This document shows positions 50,601 through 63,470 of a stretch of 64,000 nt of DNA, in pieces. The DNA lies in contig NC_085846.1 in the NCBI RefSeq assembly GCF_035594765.1, positions 68,187,190 through 68,251,189 on the forward strand, given 5' to 3'. The stretch is from Anolis carolinensis. Lineage: Eukaryota. Both the position numbers and the translations under genes were made by a program. Numbering within the stretch: position 1 is the first letter of the stretch; the number at the start of each line of letters is the position of its first letter. The notes below the pieces were generated by a model that did not search any database, was not told the DNA's origin, and was given only the letters and a program-made list of their open reading frames with translations.

Positions 50601-53600
50601 AGGATTGTGTGCACTATAAATCAGTTAGGCAGCTTTCTTGGTGCCTGTTTTAAATCATTCATCTTTGTGTACCTACCAAAGCCAGTATCAGGATTCTTAG
50701 TAGTCCTTAGATTTATGTATAACTACTATATACAGGGAATATTTTTCTATGTCAGCTAGGTAAGATAGCAATAGAACACCTAGAAATCTGGACTTGTCCT
50801 TCTCTTACCTAAATCCAGGGATGGACAACTTGCGGCCCTCAGACCAATTCTGTGTCCCTCAACCCAATAACAATATCCCTCTGTAAGTAGTATTTTCAAA
50901 CCTTGTAGCAATTGGAACAGCTGGGCTGAGTTGGAGCAATAATGGAAAGAAAAAGAAGGTCTCATTCGCTTTTGACTGTGACCCCATCTATAACCAGGGA
51001 ATGGGTTTCCCAAAAAATGCTGCTCATAAGTTTGGAAATCTCTTCCATTTTTCTGGTTGTTCATGTCAGTCCATGTAAATGTATGTAAATCAAAACTTGG
51101 AGTAGATAAGAGACAAAGGACTTGCTCAAGGCCATCAACAGAAACAGAAACACAAAGCCTTCAGTATTTCTCTTTTTTTAAAATCACTACTTTGCCTGCT
51201 GTTTGCTGCATGTCCTGTATTACCCTCTCTCCCCCTTTCAGTCTTTCTGTGTTTGCAAAGGGAAAAAGAAATGAATCCACCCAGCCACCTTATTCACACA
51301 AGGCAGAATGAATTTATAGAACTTCCTCCAGTGGATGGCCACATATTTAAGTTTTTTCAAGAGGTTACGCAAAACTGGAAATTCTGAGAGTGAAATAGAA
51401 ACTACATTTCAGGCATTTGTTGTTGTTAACTGTAACTCCACCTATCATCCCTTTACTCCTCTGCCTCCACTTTAAAGGAGTAAAAAGACTCCGAGGAGCA
51501 AAACCTTTACAAGATAAGACATGTGACGTTTAGTCATTGGAGAAATAGTCATGTTGCAAAGACAAAAAAGGGGGTAGAAGAAGAATCTAGCACTAGTGGC
51601 CCTTTTAAGACTATCTTATCTATTTTTGCATGAACTTTCTTAGATTTTTCCTGCTTCTTAGCAAGGGGTTGGACTGGATGGCCCATGAGGTCTCTTCCAA
51701 CTCTACTATTCTATGATTTCAATTTAGGTATCAGATCCTTTGATAAAGTGACATTAATAGTTCAGTACAGATTGAGCATCCCATATACAGAATTCCAAAA
51801 TCCCAAACTTTGTTTCATGTGAAAATTATTTTAAAATAATAATTTTATGTTTGGGTTTAGTTCTCTGCTCCAATGTATGCATGTATATGCATATCCTGTA
51901 AAGGCATTCCAAAATCTGAAGAAAATCCAACATCCAAGACACTTCTGATTCTAAGCATTTTGGATAAGGGATACTCCAACTGTATTTGATAGTTTAAGCA
52001 GATCTTGACAGACATATATGATCTTGCACAGCTCTTTGAAGGTTTACGGCCAGGGGCACAATTTTCATCTTTTAGTTCTATATGGAAGAAATGGATTGAT
52101 ATCCTTTAAAGCACATGCTAAAGTCCCCCCTCTTTCCCACCTTTTTATGTAGTTGGGTCAGCAGCTCTTGAAGTAATTAATTAATCTGACATTACAACAC
52201 TAGCTGAGCTAGGAAAAAACCTGCTTTGATTGCAGCCTTTAGACCAGTCATTCCCAACCTGCGGTCTGTGGACCACCAGTGGTGCCCAAGAACTAAAATA
52301 TAGTCCGCAGCCTCACCATTACTACACTGTTGCAACAAGAGTGATGGGTGTTGCGAAACCCTCTATAGTGCTGAGGCAACAGGGATGTCGGGAGGAGAGA
52401 GGGTGACTACCCACGAAAGGCAAGTGACAAGCCTCCTGACTGGTGCTTCTCTTTCTCCCTCCCCCTGAGCAGAACCATTCCATATGGTGCTTGTAAGTGA
52501 GGGTACCTTGGTGTCTCCGTTTTTAGGCCTGTTCCTGGGGTTATTTGGGGTGCTGATTCCGAAGATTGCATTGGATAGACCACATTAGCTCTGGATTATT
52601 AAATATGGTTTTCTGTGGGCGAGCAGATGGCAACTATTGGATGGCATATGTTCTGTATCAGAAACTAGAGCTGATGTGGTCTATCCAATACAATTTTCTG
52701 AATCGGCACTGCAGACAATCAAACCAAATCTAAAGTGGACCAAAAACTGATTCGTTTTTGATGAGGTGACAGAGAATGGAATCCTTTCGAATCCCACCGC
52801 TGCCACCAATTTATGTGGAGATCTGATGGTGGCAGGGAATGGAATCCCTTTTAGAATCCCTCAGCTATACCACCAATATGTACAGAGGTGAGGTGTCTGA
52901 CAGGAAATGTGTGACAGAGATGGAACCTTTTCGATCCCACACACACACACACAGATACCACCACTTAATAAAGATGTTTTATGAGAGATGATGTTAAATA
53001 ATTATTTGTTTGACTATCTTCTTCTTCGCTGCCACCAATAGAAGAGACGTCAGGCAGATGGTACTGGTTCTTATAAGCTTTCTCTAGATGTTCCACTTTA
53101 GATGTTGATGTTACTTAACTTAATATAAGATTATGACAGAGGCTTGGTTAGAATAAAAACAAAACAAGTTTATTGCAAGTACAGAGCTTGATGGTTTCAT
53201 ATAACTTAGTAAAGGCACTTCGCTTAATGGTTACAAACGGTTATGAGGTGGTCAAACTTTCAAAATACTTCTTTCTCTGGATTACACTAAACCCTGATCC
53301 TCCTGGATCCCCTGGGATTAATGTTCCCTAATCCACAGACTCTATAACTGACCCTAGACAAATCACCTAACTTGCATAGTCTGGTCCAACCTAAATCTGA
53401 CTCAAATCTTTCTATTTAAGCCAGCCTGATTCTCCACACAAGAATCAGATCCTTCTCTGTGACTAGAAAATCACCAACTGCTTCTGGGTTTTAAAATATT
53501 CCCCCTCTTCCTTTCCAGGCGGCGGTTGGCTCCGCCCCTGTTGCTATGGTAACCTGTTCTAGCACTCTAAGATGGCTACCTTCCCCCATACATATTGTCA

Positions 53601-56600
53601 ACTTAAATACTCACCATTTTAAACTTAGCCAAACCTGACTGTTTAAACAAAATTAAATACACATTTCATCTATATACAAAATATAATTATACACTTCTTT
53701 ACACACCTCCCAACCCATAAAGATTATTTTTGACTTTTCTACATCCTAGAATGGTCAAAAATAATAATGTGGATTGTAATTAAAAATATACAACAATACA
53801 TATTAATACACTCTTAACATATAATATCAACACATTATCATGCAACATATATAAACACAAACCTTTATTGTTGCAACCTCTAATATGTCCTGGAAAGTGA
53901 ATCCGCTACAATGTTGTTTTTACCTTTTACATGTTTTATCTCAAAGGGGTATAAATGGTCATACTTATTTAACAATTTCTTAACTTGTTTCTGTTGACTC
54001 TGGGACAATCCCTCGTCAACTTTTACTTGCTCGCTGCTCCTATAGGCTTTCCTATTCCCTTCCGAAAAGGGAAAAGTACCTGTTTCCTCCCCCGAAATTA
54101 TCATACATACATTTACAGATCTATTTACATATGGCTTTAACATATTTACATGCACCAGCTTTTCCACATTAGACTGTTCATCATATATAGAATAGTTCAC
54201 GCCACTGTGTCTTTTGATGACTTTCCATGGTCCAGTCCAATCTACTTGGAGCTTGTTGGTCTTGGTTGGTGTAAGATACAGGACCTCATCCCCTATCTCG
54301 AAGCTCTTGCATCTGGCAGTTGAATCGTAGTGGGCTTTCTGTCTTTGCTGGGCTGTCGCTAGATGTTCTTGGGCGGTGTTCCTGGCCATTTCCATTGTTG
54401 ACTGTAGATCTTTGATGTATTTAGTTACTGAAACAGGTTCCGGTCTTGGACTTGCTTCCCAGAATTCTCGAATTAAATCAAGCGGTCCTCGCACTCGCCT
54501 CCCATACAACAATTCAAAGGGGCTATAGCCAGTGCTGTCCTGGGGAACTTCCCTATAGGCAAATAACAATTGCTGGAGCTTGATGTCCCAGTCATGTGGG
54601 TGTTGCTGACTGTAAGACTTAATCATGCGAACCAAGGTCTTATTTAAGTTTTCAACAAGGCCATTGGTTTGTGGATGATAGGCTGATGATGTCAAGTGCC
54701 TTATTCCACACAGTTCCAGCAATCTTTCCATTAATCTAGAAGTGAACTGGGTTCCCAAATCTGATACTAGTTCTTTAGGGTAACCTGTTCTTCCCCATAT
54801 TGAGAGCAGTGCATTGGCTATGGTTGTTGTCTCGATGTTTGTTAGGGCCACTGCCTCAGGATAACGAGTTGCGTAGTCAATCATAGTCAAAATATATCTG
54901 CATCCTCTCCTACTGGGTTTGGGAAGAGGACCGATGATATCTATGCCCACTCTAGAAAAAGGTTCCCCAATTAATGGCATTGGGACTAATGGAGCCTTAA
55001 GTTTATCTCTTCCTGAGCTGATTCTCTGGCATGTGTCACAGGATTGACAAAACCTTTTAATTTGCTGGTACATGCCAGGCCAAAAGAAATTTTTAGTAAT
55101 CCTTTGAGTGGTCCATCTAATTCCTAAATGTCCCCCTTGTGGGCTGTCATGGGCTACCTCCATCAACTGTTCTCTATACTTCTGAGGTACCACAATCTGC
55201 GTATAGGAAGCGGACATCTCTGGGGCTTTTTGATTTAAAACTTCCCTGTACAAAACTCCATTTTTACTAATAAATCTGGTGGGCTTTTCTAAAGTTAAAT
55301 CTCCCTCAGTGTTTTGGGCTTGCTCAAACAAAGGCTGCAATGTGTCATCAGACTTTTGCTCCTTTAGGATTTCTCCTTCCCCTTCAGTCTTATTTACCAA
55401 ATCAGCCATTACAGAACTTGCCTCAGGATTTTCCTCTAAGTTCTGTTGTATAGGTAAACAGATAACTTCTTTATCAGATTTTTCCTCTATACATTCACCC
55501 TCATTAAGAGTCTTTGGTAACTTTTTGACTTCTCTGGCAAGGTCATTACCAATTAGGCATTTATATGGAATATCAGAACTAATAGCAAAGTCCCATACTC
55601 CTTCCCACTTGCCATATTGAACAGGTAAAGAAACCACTTCGCTTGGGATCACGGGACCCAAACCTTTTAAATTAACTTGATAAGTAGGGTGTTGGCATTT
55701 TGATGGTACTAATTCAGGTCTAATGATACAGACTTCTGAACCTGTGTCCCTCCATCCCTGTATTTGGTTTCCATCAATGTTGATGTTTTCCAAATATTCA
55801 TCTGATGTTTGATCTAACAAAACAAACAGACATTGCCTCTCCTTTTGAATTTCCTGAGGTAAATCTTTTTGAACCTTAGCTGGTTCCTTAGTTGCCTCTT
55901 TGGTTGGGACTTTCTTAACATAGAAAGAGGGTTTTTCTTTCTTTAAAAGACCACATTGTGACCTATAATGTCCTGTTTTACCACAGTGAAAGCATCGAAT
56001 ATTTCCCTCCATTTTGGCAGGGTTCATTACACTAGCCATCCTCCAGGTGGTGTTTTCTATGGAAGCTCCTCTCCCTTGCTGTGCGCGCGTGAGGGAAAAA
56101 GATGGCTGTTTAAACTGTTTTTCCTTAAATCCTCCTTCTTCCCTTTTAAAACCTTCCTTCAATGTAATTAGTTGGTCCACCATCCCAGCTGCTTGATTAG
56201 CAGTCTGAGGCTTTCTATCTTGTACCAGCCATCGATAATCTGATGGAACTTGCTGGTATAGCTGCTCTAATTTTATTAAATCCTTCAGCTGCTGGAAGTC
56301 TTTTACCTCAGAATTCCTCAACCAACTCTCAAAATATTGTGCCTGTTTGGCAGCTAGTTGTAGGAAACTTTCATTTTTCTCTCTCCTCAGTGTTCTGAAT
56401 TTTGTTCTATAAAATTCAGGAGTTAGCTGTAACCTTTGTTGTACCAGCTGTTTAAATATGGTGTAATTTCTGCGTTCTTCTTCCACCATTTCGCTATAGA
56501 TCTCCAATAGCTTTCCACAAATCTGTGGCCTGAGGTAAATCATCCAATTTTCCTCAGCTATTTCCAGATCTTTACAACACCATTCAAACGAAATTAAAAA

Positions 56601-59600
56601 CTGCTCCACATCATCCTCCTTGTTGTATTTAGGAAACCTCTTTAAGGCTGAATCAACAGGATTAATGATGGGAGTCCCTGGTTGTGCCTCCCCAGAAGGC
56701 TGAGACAGTGTCAGCTTCTGTTTTTCCCATTCAATCTCCATCCTTCTCATCTCTATCTCTGCCTGTCTCCGTTTCTCTTCTGCTTGTCTCTCTTTATCTT
56801 TTTCGTCTGCTTCTTTCTCCAATTTCATCTTCTCCATCTGTGCCTGTCTCTGTCTTTCTTTCTCCTGTGCTTCTGCCTGTCTCTCTCTCTCTCCTGTGCT
56901 TCTAATTCTAATTTCCTCATCTCTAATTGATATTTCATCATTGCTTCTGACATGGTGGTCTGTTGTTCCGAATCTGAACTCTCTTCCTCTTGGTACACCT
57001 CTACCTCTCCTGCTCCTCTTTTCTGCTTTCTGGTGGCCATTCTTTATAACTTTTACCTCAGAAATTTTAATGAGCGATCTCAGGCACCAAATTAGGGATG
57101 TTATACGTATCCCGCCGCTTGCCGCCAATTTATGTAGAGAGGTGATGGGGTGACAGAGAATGGAATCCTTTCGAATCCCACCGCTGCCACCAATTTATGT
57201 GGAGATCTGATGGTGGCAGGGAATGGAATCCCTTTTAGAATCCCTCAGCTATACCACCAATATGTACAGAGGTGAGGTGTCTGACAGGAAATGTGTGACA
57301 GAGATGGAACCTTTTCGATCCCACACACACACACACAGATACCACCACTTAATAAAGATGTTTTATGAGAGATGATGTTAAATAATTATTTGTTTGACTA
57401 TCTTCTTTTTCGCTGCCACCAATAGAAGAGACGTCAGGCAGATGGTACTGGTTCTTATAAGCTTTCTCTAGTTGTTCCACTTTAGATGTTGATGTTACTT
57501 AACTTAATATAAGATTATGACAGAGGCTTGGTTAGAATAAAAACAAAACAAGTTTATTGCAGGTACAGAGCTTGATGGTTTCATATAACTTAGTAAAGGC
57601 ACTTCGCTTAATGGTTACAAACGGTTATGAGGTGGTCAAACTTTCAAAATACTTCTTTCTCTGGATTACACTAAACCCTGATCCTCCTGGATCCCCTGGG
57701 ATTAATGTTCCCTAATCCACAGACTCTATAACTGACCCTAGACAAATCACCTAACTTGCCTAGTCTGGTCCAACCTAAATCTGACTCAAATCTTTCTATT
57801 TAAGCCAGCCTGATTCTCCACACAAGAATCAGATCCTTCTCTGTGACTAGAAAATCACCAACTGCTTCTGGGTTTTAAAGTATTCCCCCTCTTCCTTTCC
57901 AGGCGGCGGTTGGCTCCGCCCCTGTTGCTATGGTAACCTGTTCTAGCACTCTAAGATGGCTACCTTCCCCCATACATATTGTCAACTTAAATACTCACCA
58001 TTTTAAACTTAGCCAAACCTGACTGTTTAAACAAAATTAAATACACATTTCATCTATATACAAAATATAATTATACACTTCTTTACACAAAGTTTGGGAA
58101 CCACTGCTTTAGACTTTGAGATCCTGAGATTTGTAATTCCCTCTTACCCCAAAAGTGCTTCTCTGGATTTGGAAATTACCCGTTCTCTGACTTTTTTCAG
58201 ACAATCTCTCAGCCCCTAAAGACGGTTTCTATAAGTAAATGAAGGATGAATAGTAAGCAAGGAAAAAGCATTGAAGTGACTCTTGTGCAACTGTGTTGTC
58301 GAAGGCTTTCATGGCCAGGATCACAGGGTTGTTATATGTCTTTCGGGCTGTGTGGCCATGTTCCAGAAGTATTCTCTCCTGACGTTTCGCCCACATCTAT
58401 GGCAGGCATCCTCAGAGGTTGTGAGGCATGGATAAACTAGGCAAGGAAGGCAACTGATTTGCATTTTGGTTGATGATACACTGCTCTGAACTGAAGGGAG
58501 AAGAATACCAGAAAAGAAATGGGGAAAACAACGTTGTGTTGATGTAATAAAAATCAGTGCATGCATACCAGAGTTCTGACCCAGAGATGTGGATAAATAA
58601 AGAGAAAAAAGAAATGAAGAATATAGCAGTCTCAATTGCTAGCATAAGATCAAGAACTGTGCTGAAAATATTTCTTCCATTAAGTTCCTTTGTTTATTTT
58701 TCAAATAACAAGCAGATTGTTTTTTGTTGTTTTACCCTTAAAAAGGTTCTTTGTCATACTTTCTGTGTACACAAAGAATGACACAGATCTGTTACTTTAA
58801 ATAAATATTGACATTAGCAGAATTTATCTCCACTGACCTTCACTTTTGTTATTGTCTTGGTTTTCTAGATTATTTCCATGGTGGACATTTTGAAGTTCAT
58901 TTTAACAATGTTTGTGTGCCTGCCTCCAATTTGATACTTGGTGAGTATTTATTTTCTTGACAAAACCTGGGAAGCTTTGTGAACATCTGTAGGTAGGAGG
59001 AGCTTCGCCAGGTTTATATCTACAGTTCTGTTGGGCAGTTCAGGACTTTGAATTAAACTTCATGCCACATTTAGTGCACAGCTAAATTTCACTAGAGCCA
59101 AGGTGACATAGTAGTTTGAGTATTGGACTACAGCTCTGGACATTAGTGTTCGAATCCCCACTTAGCCATGGGAGCCTACTGGATAAAGATTCCACCTGAA
59201 CATTAGGCAGAACTTCCTAACTGTAAGAGCTGTTCAGCAGTGGAACTCTCTGCCCCCGAGTGGTGGTGGAGGCTCCTTCTTTGGAGGCTTTTAAACAGAG
59301 GCTGGATGGCCATCTGTCGGGGCTGCTTTGAATGCATTTTTCCTGCTTCTTGGCAGGGGGTTGGACTGGATGTCCCATGAACTCTCCTCCAATTCTATGA
59401 TTCTGTTATTCTAAGTCATATTTTCTCAGCCTCAAAATTAGACTTACTGGCACACTTTTCCAAGAAAACCCTGTGACAGCTTCTTCTCTGGTCACCATAA
59501 GTCAGAAACTACTTTAAGGCATACAACAACAAGAGTATTTTAGCTAAACTAGGTACTTTATTTTTGGGTGGGCTATTTTGCATGGGTACGTGGCACAAGC

Positions 59601-63324: not shown

Positions 63325-63470
63325 TCCTCTCTCTGTGTTTGTATCTGTGTCCGTCTCTGTGTTTGTCTGTCTTTGTGTCTGTCTGCCTGCGTGTCTGCCC
63401 GTGTGTCTGTCTGTCTGTGTGTGTGTCTCTGTCTTTGTCTGTCTGTGTATGGTTGTGTCTGTCTTGTCTG
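63325..63470. repeat. Compound (TG)/(TC)/(TGTC) microsatellite
   Basis: Visible low-complexity run; other simple repeats are a G-run+(GA)n at 20291-20332, (CA)n at 47593-47621 and AT-rich sequence at 19000-19300. Confidence 0.9.

Follow-up and report, generated by a model that had tools for sequence, protein, structure and literature searches.

Stacked tRNA-Leu primer-binding sites inside the LTRs of a Gmr1-like Ty3/gypsy element of Anolis carolinensis

A minus-strand LTR retrotransposon of Anolis carolinensis carries, inside each of its LTRs, a stack of primer-binding sites (PBSs) matching tRNA-Leu, and comparison of its genomic copies indicates that reverse transcription probably adds modules to this array and removes them, and that perfect inner sites probably act as primer sites at times. 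The LTR end in this family is likely not fixed. In a textbook LTR element a single primer site sets the LTR end and two identical LTRs result, whereas this family departs from the canonical junction, in which one PBS lies outside the LTR and the LTRs are identical at insertion. The element was found in a 64,000-nt stretch of genomic DNA, referred to here as the window.

The window element and its primer-site array

We take the element to be young, since the 947 nt that can be aligned between its LTRs (57143-58089 vs. 52759-53705) contain just six mismatches. Its features, all on the minus strand, are listed below; a module consists of a PBS (the head) and the tail that follows it.

57133..58087, minus: 5' LTR, TGT...ACA, 955 bp, with four PBS modules in U5 (by alignment)
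57553..57558, minus: AATAAA poly(A) signal, ~130 nt upstream of site 1
57411..57421, minus: site 1, the oldest, an 11-nt remnant of the tRNA-Leu PBS
57314..57347, minus: site 2, a PBS split by a (TG)n run
57235..57259, minus: site 3, a degenerate PBS, head of module 3 (57193-57259)
57170..57192, minus: site 4, a perfect PBS, 23-nt complement of the tRNA-Leu(AAG/TAG) 3' end
57149..57192, minus: predicted hairpin of module 4, PBS paired with the anti-PBS in its own tail (-24.5 kcal/mol, z -3.3)
57109..57127, minus: terminal PBS, outside the LTR and before gag, degenerate (two substitutions, one extra base)
53880..57194, minus: stop-to-stop frame of 1104 aa, gag with SCAN, protease and integrase
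53706..53716, minus: polypurine tract
52759..53703, minus: 3' LTR, with the same four sites as the 5' LTR (by alignment)
53027-53037, 52930-52963, 52851-52875 and 52786-52808, minus: sites of the 3' LTR, at an offset of 4384 from those of the 5' LTR

The start and end of the 5' LTR were set from relatives with 5-bp target-site duplications. The sequence-only reading of this DNA had taken CATCA or CCTCA as the LTR-end motif, and this was rejected: 72 of 76 solo LTRs with a target-site duplication end in ACA immediately before it, so the window 5' LTR extends to 57133. The processed LTR end reads ACA, a spacer of 2-5 nt and then TGG. The CATCA end of the window 3' LTR (52759) is a local truncation, the last ~10 nt being missing, and there is no target-site duplication. 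The same reading fared better on the array itself, as all five motifs that it had placed between 57109 and 57421 are present, the four inside the LTR recur in the 3' LTR, and its view of a module as an LTR end joined to a PBS is supported. Since AATAAA lies upstream of the array, the modules appear to sit in U5.

The 23-nt perfect site, proposed to be the CCA-bearing 3' end of tRNA-Leu(AAG/TAG), equals that of the host tRNA-Leu encoded by seven genes. A genome search with a tRNA T-arm/acceptor pattern gave 15 places, and among the 14 examined ARAGORN identified these seven tRNA-Leu genes (four AAG, three TAG). The last 11 tRNA bases occur four times in the window vs. 0.007 expected by chance and the last 23 bases twice vs. 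3e-10; no tRNA genes were found within the 64 kb. Site 4 is the only perfect site in the 5' array, site 1 matching over 11 nt and the other three being degenerate. A search for a second tRNA fitting the degenerate terminal site gave no match with the one pattern used.

We place the element among the Gmr1-like Ty3/gypsy retrotransposons by its SCAN gag and by an integrase that precedes RT and RNase H. The window frame has a SCAN match above the cut-off (PF02023, E 6e-12) and then protease and integrase, with no family match to RT or RNase H in its 1104 aa. The order SCAN-PR-IN-RT-RH is seen in two relatives, L257 and L251, the former belonging to the same family as the window element (RVP 396-483, IN 595-947, RT 1072-1231, RH 1296-1425). 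The window copy is RT-deleted, through an internal deletion. TG...CA LTRs, a polypurine tract, a PBS and target-site duplications are present family-wide. The SCAN gag and PR-IN-RT-RH order are those given for Gmr1-like elements in the available portion of bioRxiv 10.1101/2025.03.03.638093, and the TG...CA LTRs, polypurine tract and 5-bp duplications are likewise shared, while the window copy differs in lacking RT and RNase H; that portion makes no mention of PBS arrays.

The LTR element is harboured by a short inverted-repeat element (52245-52758 and 58088-58105), which we take to be hAT-like. A related copy in L116 has ~70 bases more at this point, and for this reason we think that host-side DNA, the target site and the tip of the LTR were probably lost together from the window, in a single local deletion. 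Elsewhere in the window, purine-rich repeats at 56730-56900 fall in a coiled-coil region of gag and differ in length among copies, and a degenerate (TGTC)n/(TG)n simple repeat lies at 63328-63464.

Array variation among genomic copies and related families

An LTR pattern upstream of the array had 132 exact matches in the genome, of which 100 were used; together with 30 similarity matches, 116 LTRs were parsed. These comprised 76 solo LTRs with a target-site duplication (69 exact, seven with one mismatch), 19 5' LTRs, nine 3' LTRs and 12 unresolved. The solo LTRs fall into the stepwise length classes that had been anticipated, with inner-site numbers of two (2 LTRs), three (16), four (31), five (16), six (8), nine (1) and ten (1) for the 75 that were left after one misparsed row was removed, in three of which the last unit is long and the number may be too low. 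The distribution has the same shape in the 70 solo LTRs from the pattern matches alone.

Most copies of sites 1-3 are old and degenerate. From position 4 onwards, 95 of 115 heads agree exactly with the tRNA over 18 nt, and the agreement drops past this length, with columns 19-21 matching in 83, 74 and 26 of the 115. The m1A58 modification of the tRNA would stop reverse transcriptase, and it is at this point that the match falls. Single exact 18-mers of the tRNA-Leu PBS number 1953 in the host genome. Among 44 terminal sites before gag (two leader-repeat rows of another family having been removed), just two are perfect and five lack the extra base, and from the latter we conclude that repair or recombination reaches the terminal site at times. 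One locus, L028, has a second, diverged LTR (1902-2726, 72% identity) in inverted orientation adjoining a solo LTR.

Inner tRNA-Leu sites extend beyond this family. Twenty elements from three other families, with gag 69-73% identical and U3 without BLAST similarity, all have two to four of them, and in these sister families the module count was equal in 17 of 17 scored pairs. Four further elements were picked for their site spacing, and in one of these (L270, of another family, with a 4-bp duplication) the 3' LTR is one module short of the 5' LTR. A perfect terminal site is present in six of ten cases in one sister family vs. the two of 44 above. In one sister family (L198, L247-L256) the leader has a second tandem repeat of ~31 nt, in two to five copies, just downstream of the terminal PBS. 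Degenerate terminal sites of the same types, with an additional base around position 9, are found in L248, L253, L241 and L256 and so recur across families whose U3 regions lack BLAST similarity, which would point to leader exchange or to a common constraint. Three gag matches spaced at 4322 bp at C5:61.35-61.36 Mb suggest a tandem array of elements.

Unequal LTR pairs and copied tRNA

Insertions that retain both LTRs give an indication of how the array changes. There were 29 two-LTR candidates, 20 of which have a target-site duplication and normal orientation; the nine set aside comprised the window element, a chimeric copy present as three segmental duplicates, three candidates in which an LTR is truncated or interrupted, a pair that does not match and an inverted pair. 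Priming at the terminal site would give both LTRs the same array, and priming at an inner site would give a 3' LTR that stops before it. The array differs between the two LTRs in nine of the 20 pairs, with 99.2-99.9% identity upstream of it. In the other 11 the two LTRs agree in module number and in their last tail (a 14-nt deletion affects a head in one of these pairs), and for this reason the terminal PBS may be taken as the usual priming site. Four of the nine differ in the last tail at equal count, and in two the 3' LTR has an additional module and the 5' LTR shows a crossover within a unit.

In the remaining three pairs (C3:152.1, C3:189.1 and C13:8.18 Mb) the 3' LTR is one module shorter and ends at ACA directly before a perfect inner PBS, the penultimate tail being wholly intact. 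In each the perfect head is unlike both neighbouring heads, and simple duplication does not produce such a head. L270, selected for its spacing, adds a fourth instance of this kind from another family. Priming at the inner site would account for these three pairs with no extra assumption. They could instead reflect a gain on the 5' side, if tRNA-bearing plus-strand DNA transferred onto a second RNA's copy; both are reverse-transcription events. The proposal that inner sites are alternative primers is supported, such use being suggested by the three of 20 copies that stop before a perfect inner site. We expect internal priming to be a minority event, because arrays are equal in 11 of 20 pairs of this family and module counts in all 17 of the sister families. 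At one unequal 3' LTR end, four public sequencing runs yielded short repeat contigs, none bridging the junction.

Some other loci are structurally unusual. L258 (C3:49.25 Mb) has two LTRs in inverted orientation, U3 ends outward, that agree at 667 of 670 positions before the array begins; a 5-bp duplication flanks the structure, which encloses 1.3 kb of unrelated DNA. A lone 5' LTR (L125/L017, C1:200.99 Mb) and a lone 3' LTR (L195, C2:219.45 Mb) have an identical array on different contigs, and the latter has kept, unprocessed, the spacer and first PBS bases.

In rare copies the sequence runs on from ACA and the spacer straight into 25-47 nt of tRNA. In L265, 40 nt are exact to a Leu(TAG) gene (four loci, probably one event), in L077 45 of 47 nt match Leu(AAG), and L263 has 25 nt. 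A solo LTR of another family, L066, contains 27 exact tRNA nt inside the LTR, then a looser continuation, and a second copy of its U5 end follows this internal stretch. Because these loci came from a search for long tRNA matches they show occurrence and not frequency; L065, a 41-nt tRNA complement with no adjoining LTR, was left out. The tRNA sequence copied at module ends identifies tRNA-Leu as the primer of these elements, and these loci show that tRNA-templated DNA can become fixed inside an LTR. Self-priming of the Tf1/sushi type, in which there is no tRNA primer and the transcript 5' end pairs with the PBS, is ruled out by the 25-47 nt of host tRNA-Leu copied at LTR ends.

A multi-copy non-autonomous form (L061-L063 and L266) has 40 nt of tRNA-Leu(TAG) complement fused straight to integrase sequence, and two of its copies lie 3.5 kb apart. 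L077 (C2:299.76 Mb) consists of a 5' LTR devoid of inner sites, a portion of gag and then three modules that end in the 47-nt tRNA-Leu(AAG) complement and unrelated DNA; it looks like an aberrant cDNA.

Proposed mechanism, alternatives and significance

We suggest the following course of events. tRNA-Leu would mostly prime at the last, degenerate site, so that the upstream sites enter both LTRs, while priming at a perfect inner site would cost the 3' LTR one module relative to the 5' side. Plus-strand DNA would transfer by U5 homology, as in Ty1/Ty3, and if it landed with a register shift of one module, or on the copy in a co-packaged RNA, a module would be deleted or the last tail swapped. 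Plus-strand strong-stop DNA with copied tRNA, a dead end in ordinary elements, could land on upstream homology and add a module with a fresh 18-nt head. The anti-PBS in each tail, which the sequence-only reading had not noted, is predicted to fold on its site, which would shrink the binding advantage of the inner sites. Most simply, the array would be a self-propagating, tolerated by-product that also gives spare primer sites. The idea that U5 grew by repeated PBS capture stands in so far as tRNA-templated DNA was captured in rare copies, the direct cases being confined to another family and to aberrant copies. Among the 12 closest neighbour cases, only two combine a degenerate head and a perfect next head with identical tails, and as additional perfect heads occur in both of these arrays, module addition by tRNA capture is unproven for the window element's family.

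Variable arrays could also arise on the chromosome if a single old duplication of LTR end and PBS had become an unstable minisatellite, changing by slippage or unequal exchange with inner sites that never act. Arrays with nine and ten sites do contain runs of identical neighbouring modules, there is a surplus of near-identical neighbours (tails within one edit in 12 of 115 cases vs. 33 of 5000 random pairs) and two pairs have a mid-unit loss in the 5' LTR. All of these fit DNA slippage equally well, and slippage may contribute to array change. Yet for slippage to generate the three 3' LTRs that stop precisely after an intact tail, in insertions with a target-site duplication, the crossover would have to fall in the final 5 of 52, 13 of 51 and 5 of 53 shared bases, a probability product of 0.002 (calculated post hoc), and none of the 20 pairs has a 3' LTR with a chimeric shortened end. 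The last tail was swapped at constant count in four pairs, later heads are exact over 18 nt though tails are highly diverse (171 distinct of 206), and tRNA read-through is located at module ends. In addition, the three segmental duplicates of one insertion have retained the same array. On this evidence we consider a minisatellite origin unlikely.

It is also conceivable that modules were selected as RNA structure, with PBS/anti-PBS hairpins that swap register or form between RNAs and have roles in dimerisation, packaging or primer loading, which would be compatible with array change during reverse transcription. Supporting this are the predicted folds of later modules, 96 of 103 distinct ones having z < -2 with a median of 15 of 18 PBS bases paired, and the occurrence of inner sites in each of the 20 elements from the three other families. 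The anti-PBS arm reads CTGCCAC in 85 of 110 cases and the wobble-compatible CTGTCAC in 16, and a tail is predicted to pair no less well with the neighbouring downstream site (-27.9 kcal/mol, z -4.2). However, these counts share descent and are not independent, site number varies from two to ten, the 5' LTR of L077 lost its array, and sites 1 and 2 fold no better than shuffles, so that selection of this kind seems to us quite unlikely. Nor does the energy model bear out hairpins that fully hide the inner sites. Predicted net tRNA binding in the window is -16.8 for site 4 and -16.9 for the terminal site, or -19.3 and -16.8 with another stretch, and among 18 5' LTRs (in three of which the parser missed one inner site) the best site was a perfect inner one in ten, site 1 in six and the terminal site in two. 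As a perfect inner site is best in ten of the 18, hairpins are predicted to narrow the binding gap but would leave the terminal site's usual win unexplained. The inner sites might, finally, be decoys selected to draw 3' tRNA-Leu fragments or PBS-binding zinc-finger repressors away from the terminal site, an explanation that we regard as very unlikely. The available text of PMC7515703 describes 3' tRNA fragments that block LTR elements at the PBS, and lizard SCAN-ZFPs are predicted to bind a Gmr1-like PBS in the part of PMC4592553 that we used. The tRNA match is indeed better at inner sites than at the terminal site, and the genome holds the 1953 exact 18-mers noted above. Against this, such decoys would share an RNA with the terminal site, and perfect sites on it would make better silencing targets too, the inner sites are predicted to be paired and the oldest sites have decayed.

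Array change during reverse transcription, the reading that we prefer, can be compared with better known systems. The retroviral U5-PBS junction has a CA end, a short spacer and an 18-nt PBS ending where m1A58 would stop reverse transcriptase. These elements share the CA end, short spacer and 18-nt PBS; in contrast to the single retroviral site outside the LTR and its fixed end, they have 2-10 sites inside, a variable spacer of 2-5 nt and unequal LTRs in nine of 20 insertions. In Ty1/Ty3, according to the available portion of PMC5371799, the PBS is not inherited from the primer, transfer occurs via R-U5 homology and the tRNA-bearing plus-strand product is a dead end. The rarity of perfect terminal sites here (mostly unrepaired, two of 44 perfect) may fit primer sequence not being inherited, tRNA-bearing plus-strand DNA appears to exist in both systems, and transfer by R-U5 homology would account for the tail swaps. 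Unlike the one bipartite PBS and identical LTRs of Ty1/Ty3, here full 18-nt sites are stacked in U5, and the product that is a dead end there appears to have been captured. Recombination between co-packaged RNAs of LTR retrotransposons would similarly give a mosaic U5 from two templates, but the scheme in the part of PMC6894440 consulted yields two identical LTRs, whereas the array here is unequal between the LTRs of one insertion. We found no description of PBS arrays inside LTRs in the literature searched, including the available text of PMC11011659; early Gmr1 papers and Repbase, which may mention it, were outside its scope.

Several vertebrate families have many primer sites and a probably mobile LTR end, with unequal LTRs in nine of 20 insertions, and in such families LTR boundary calling and LTR-pair dating can fail. 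They offer, for a vertebrate Ty3/gypsy element, a naturally occurring way to follow the choice of primer site and the transfer of plus-strand DNA, processes studied mostly in yeast and retroviruses, and the series of 2-10 sites is a graded set for testing tRNA-fragment silencing. A further-reading possibility, which we put forward only tentatively, is that this lineage has no fixed LTR end, recycles tRNA-templated DNA into sites and chooses its primer site in each round, with the stack selected as hairpin-gated spare primer sites or as a buffer against tRNA fragments. If the absence of a fixed end is true, one could read from the unequal LTR pairs in the genome which site had been used for priming at each insertion.
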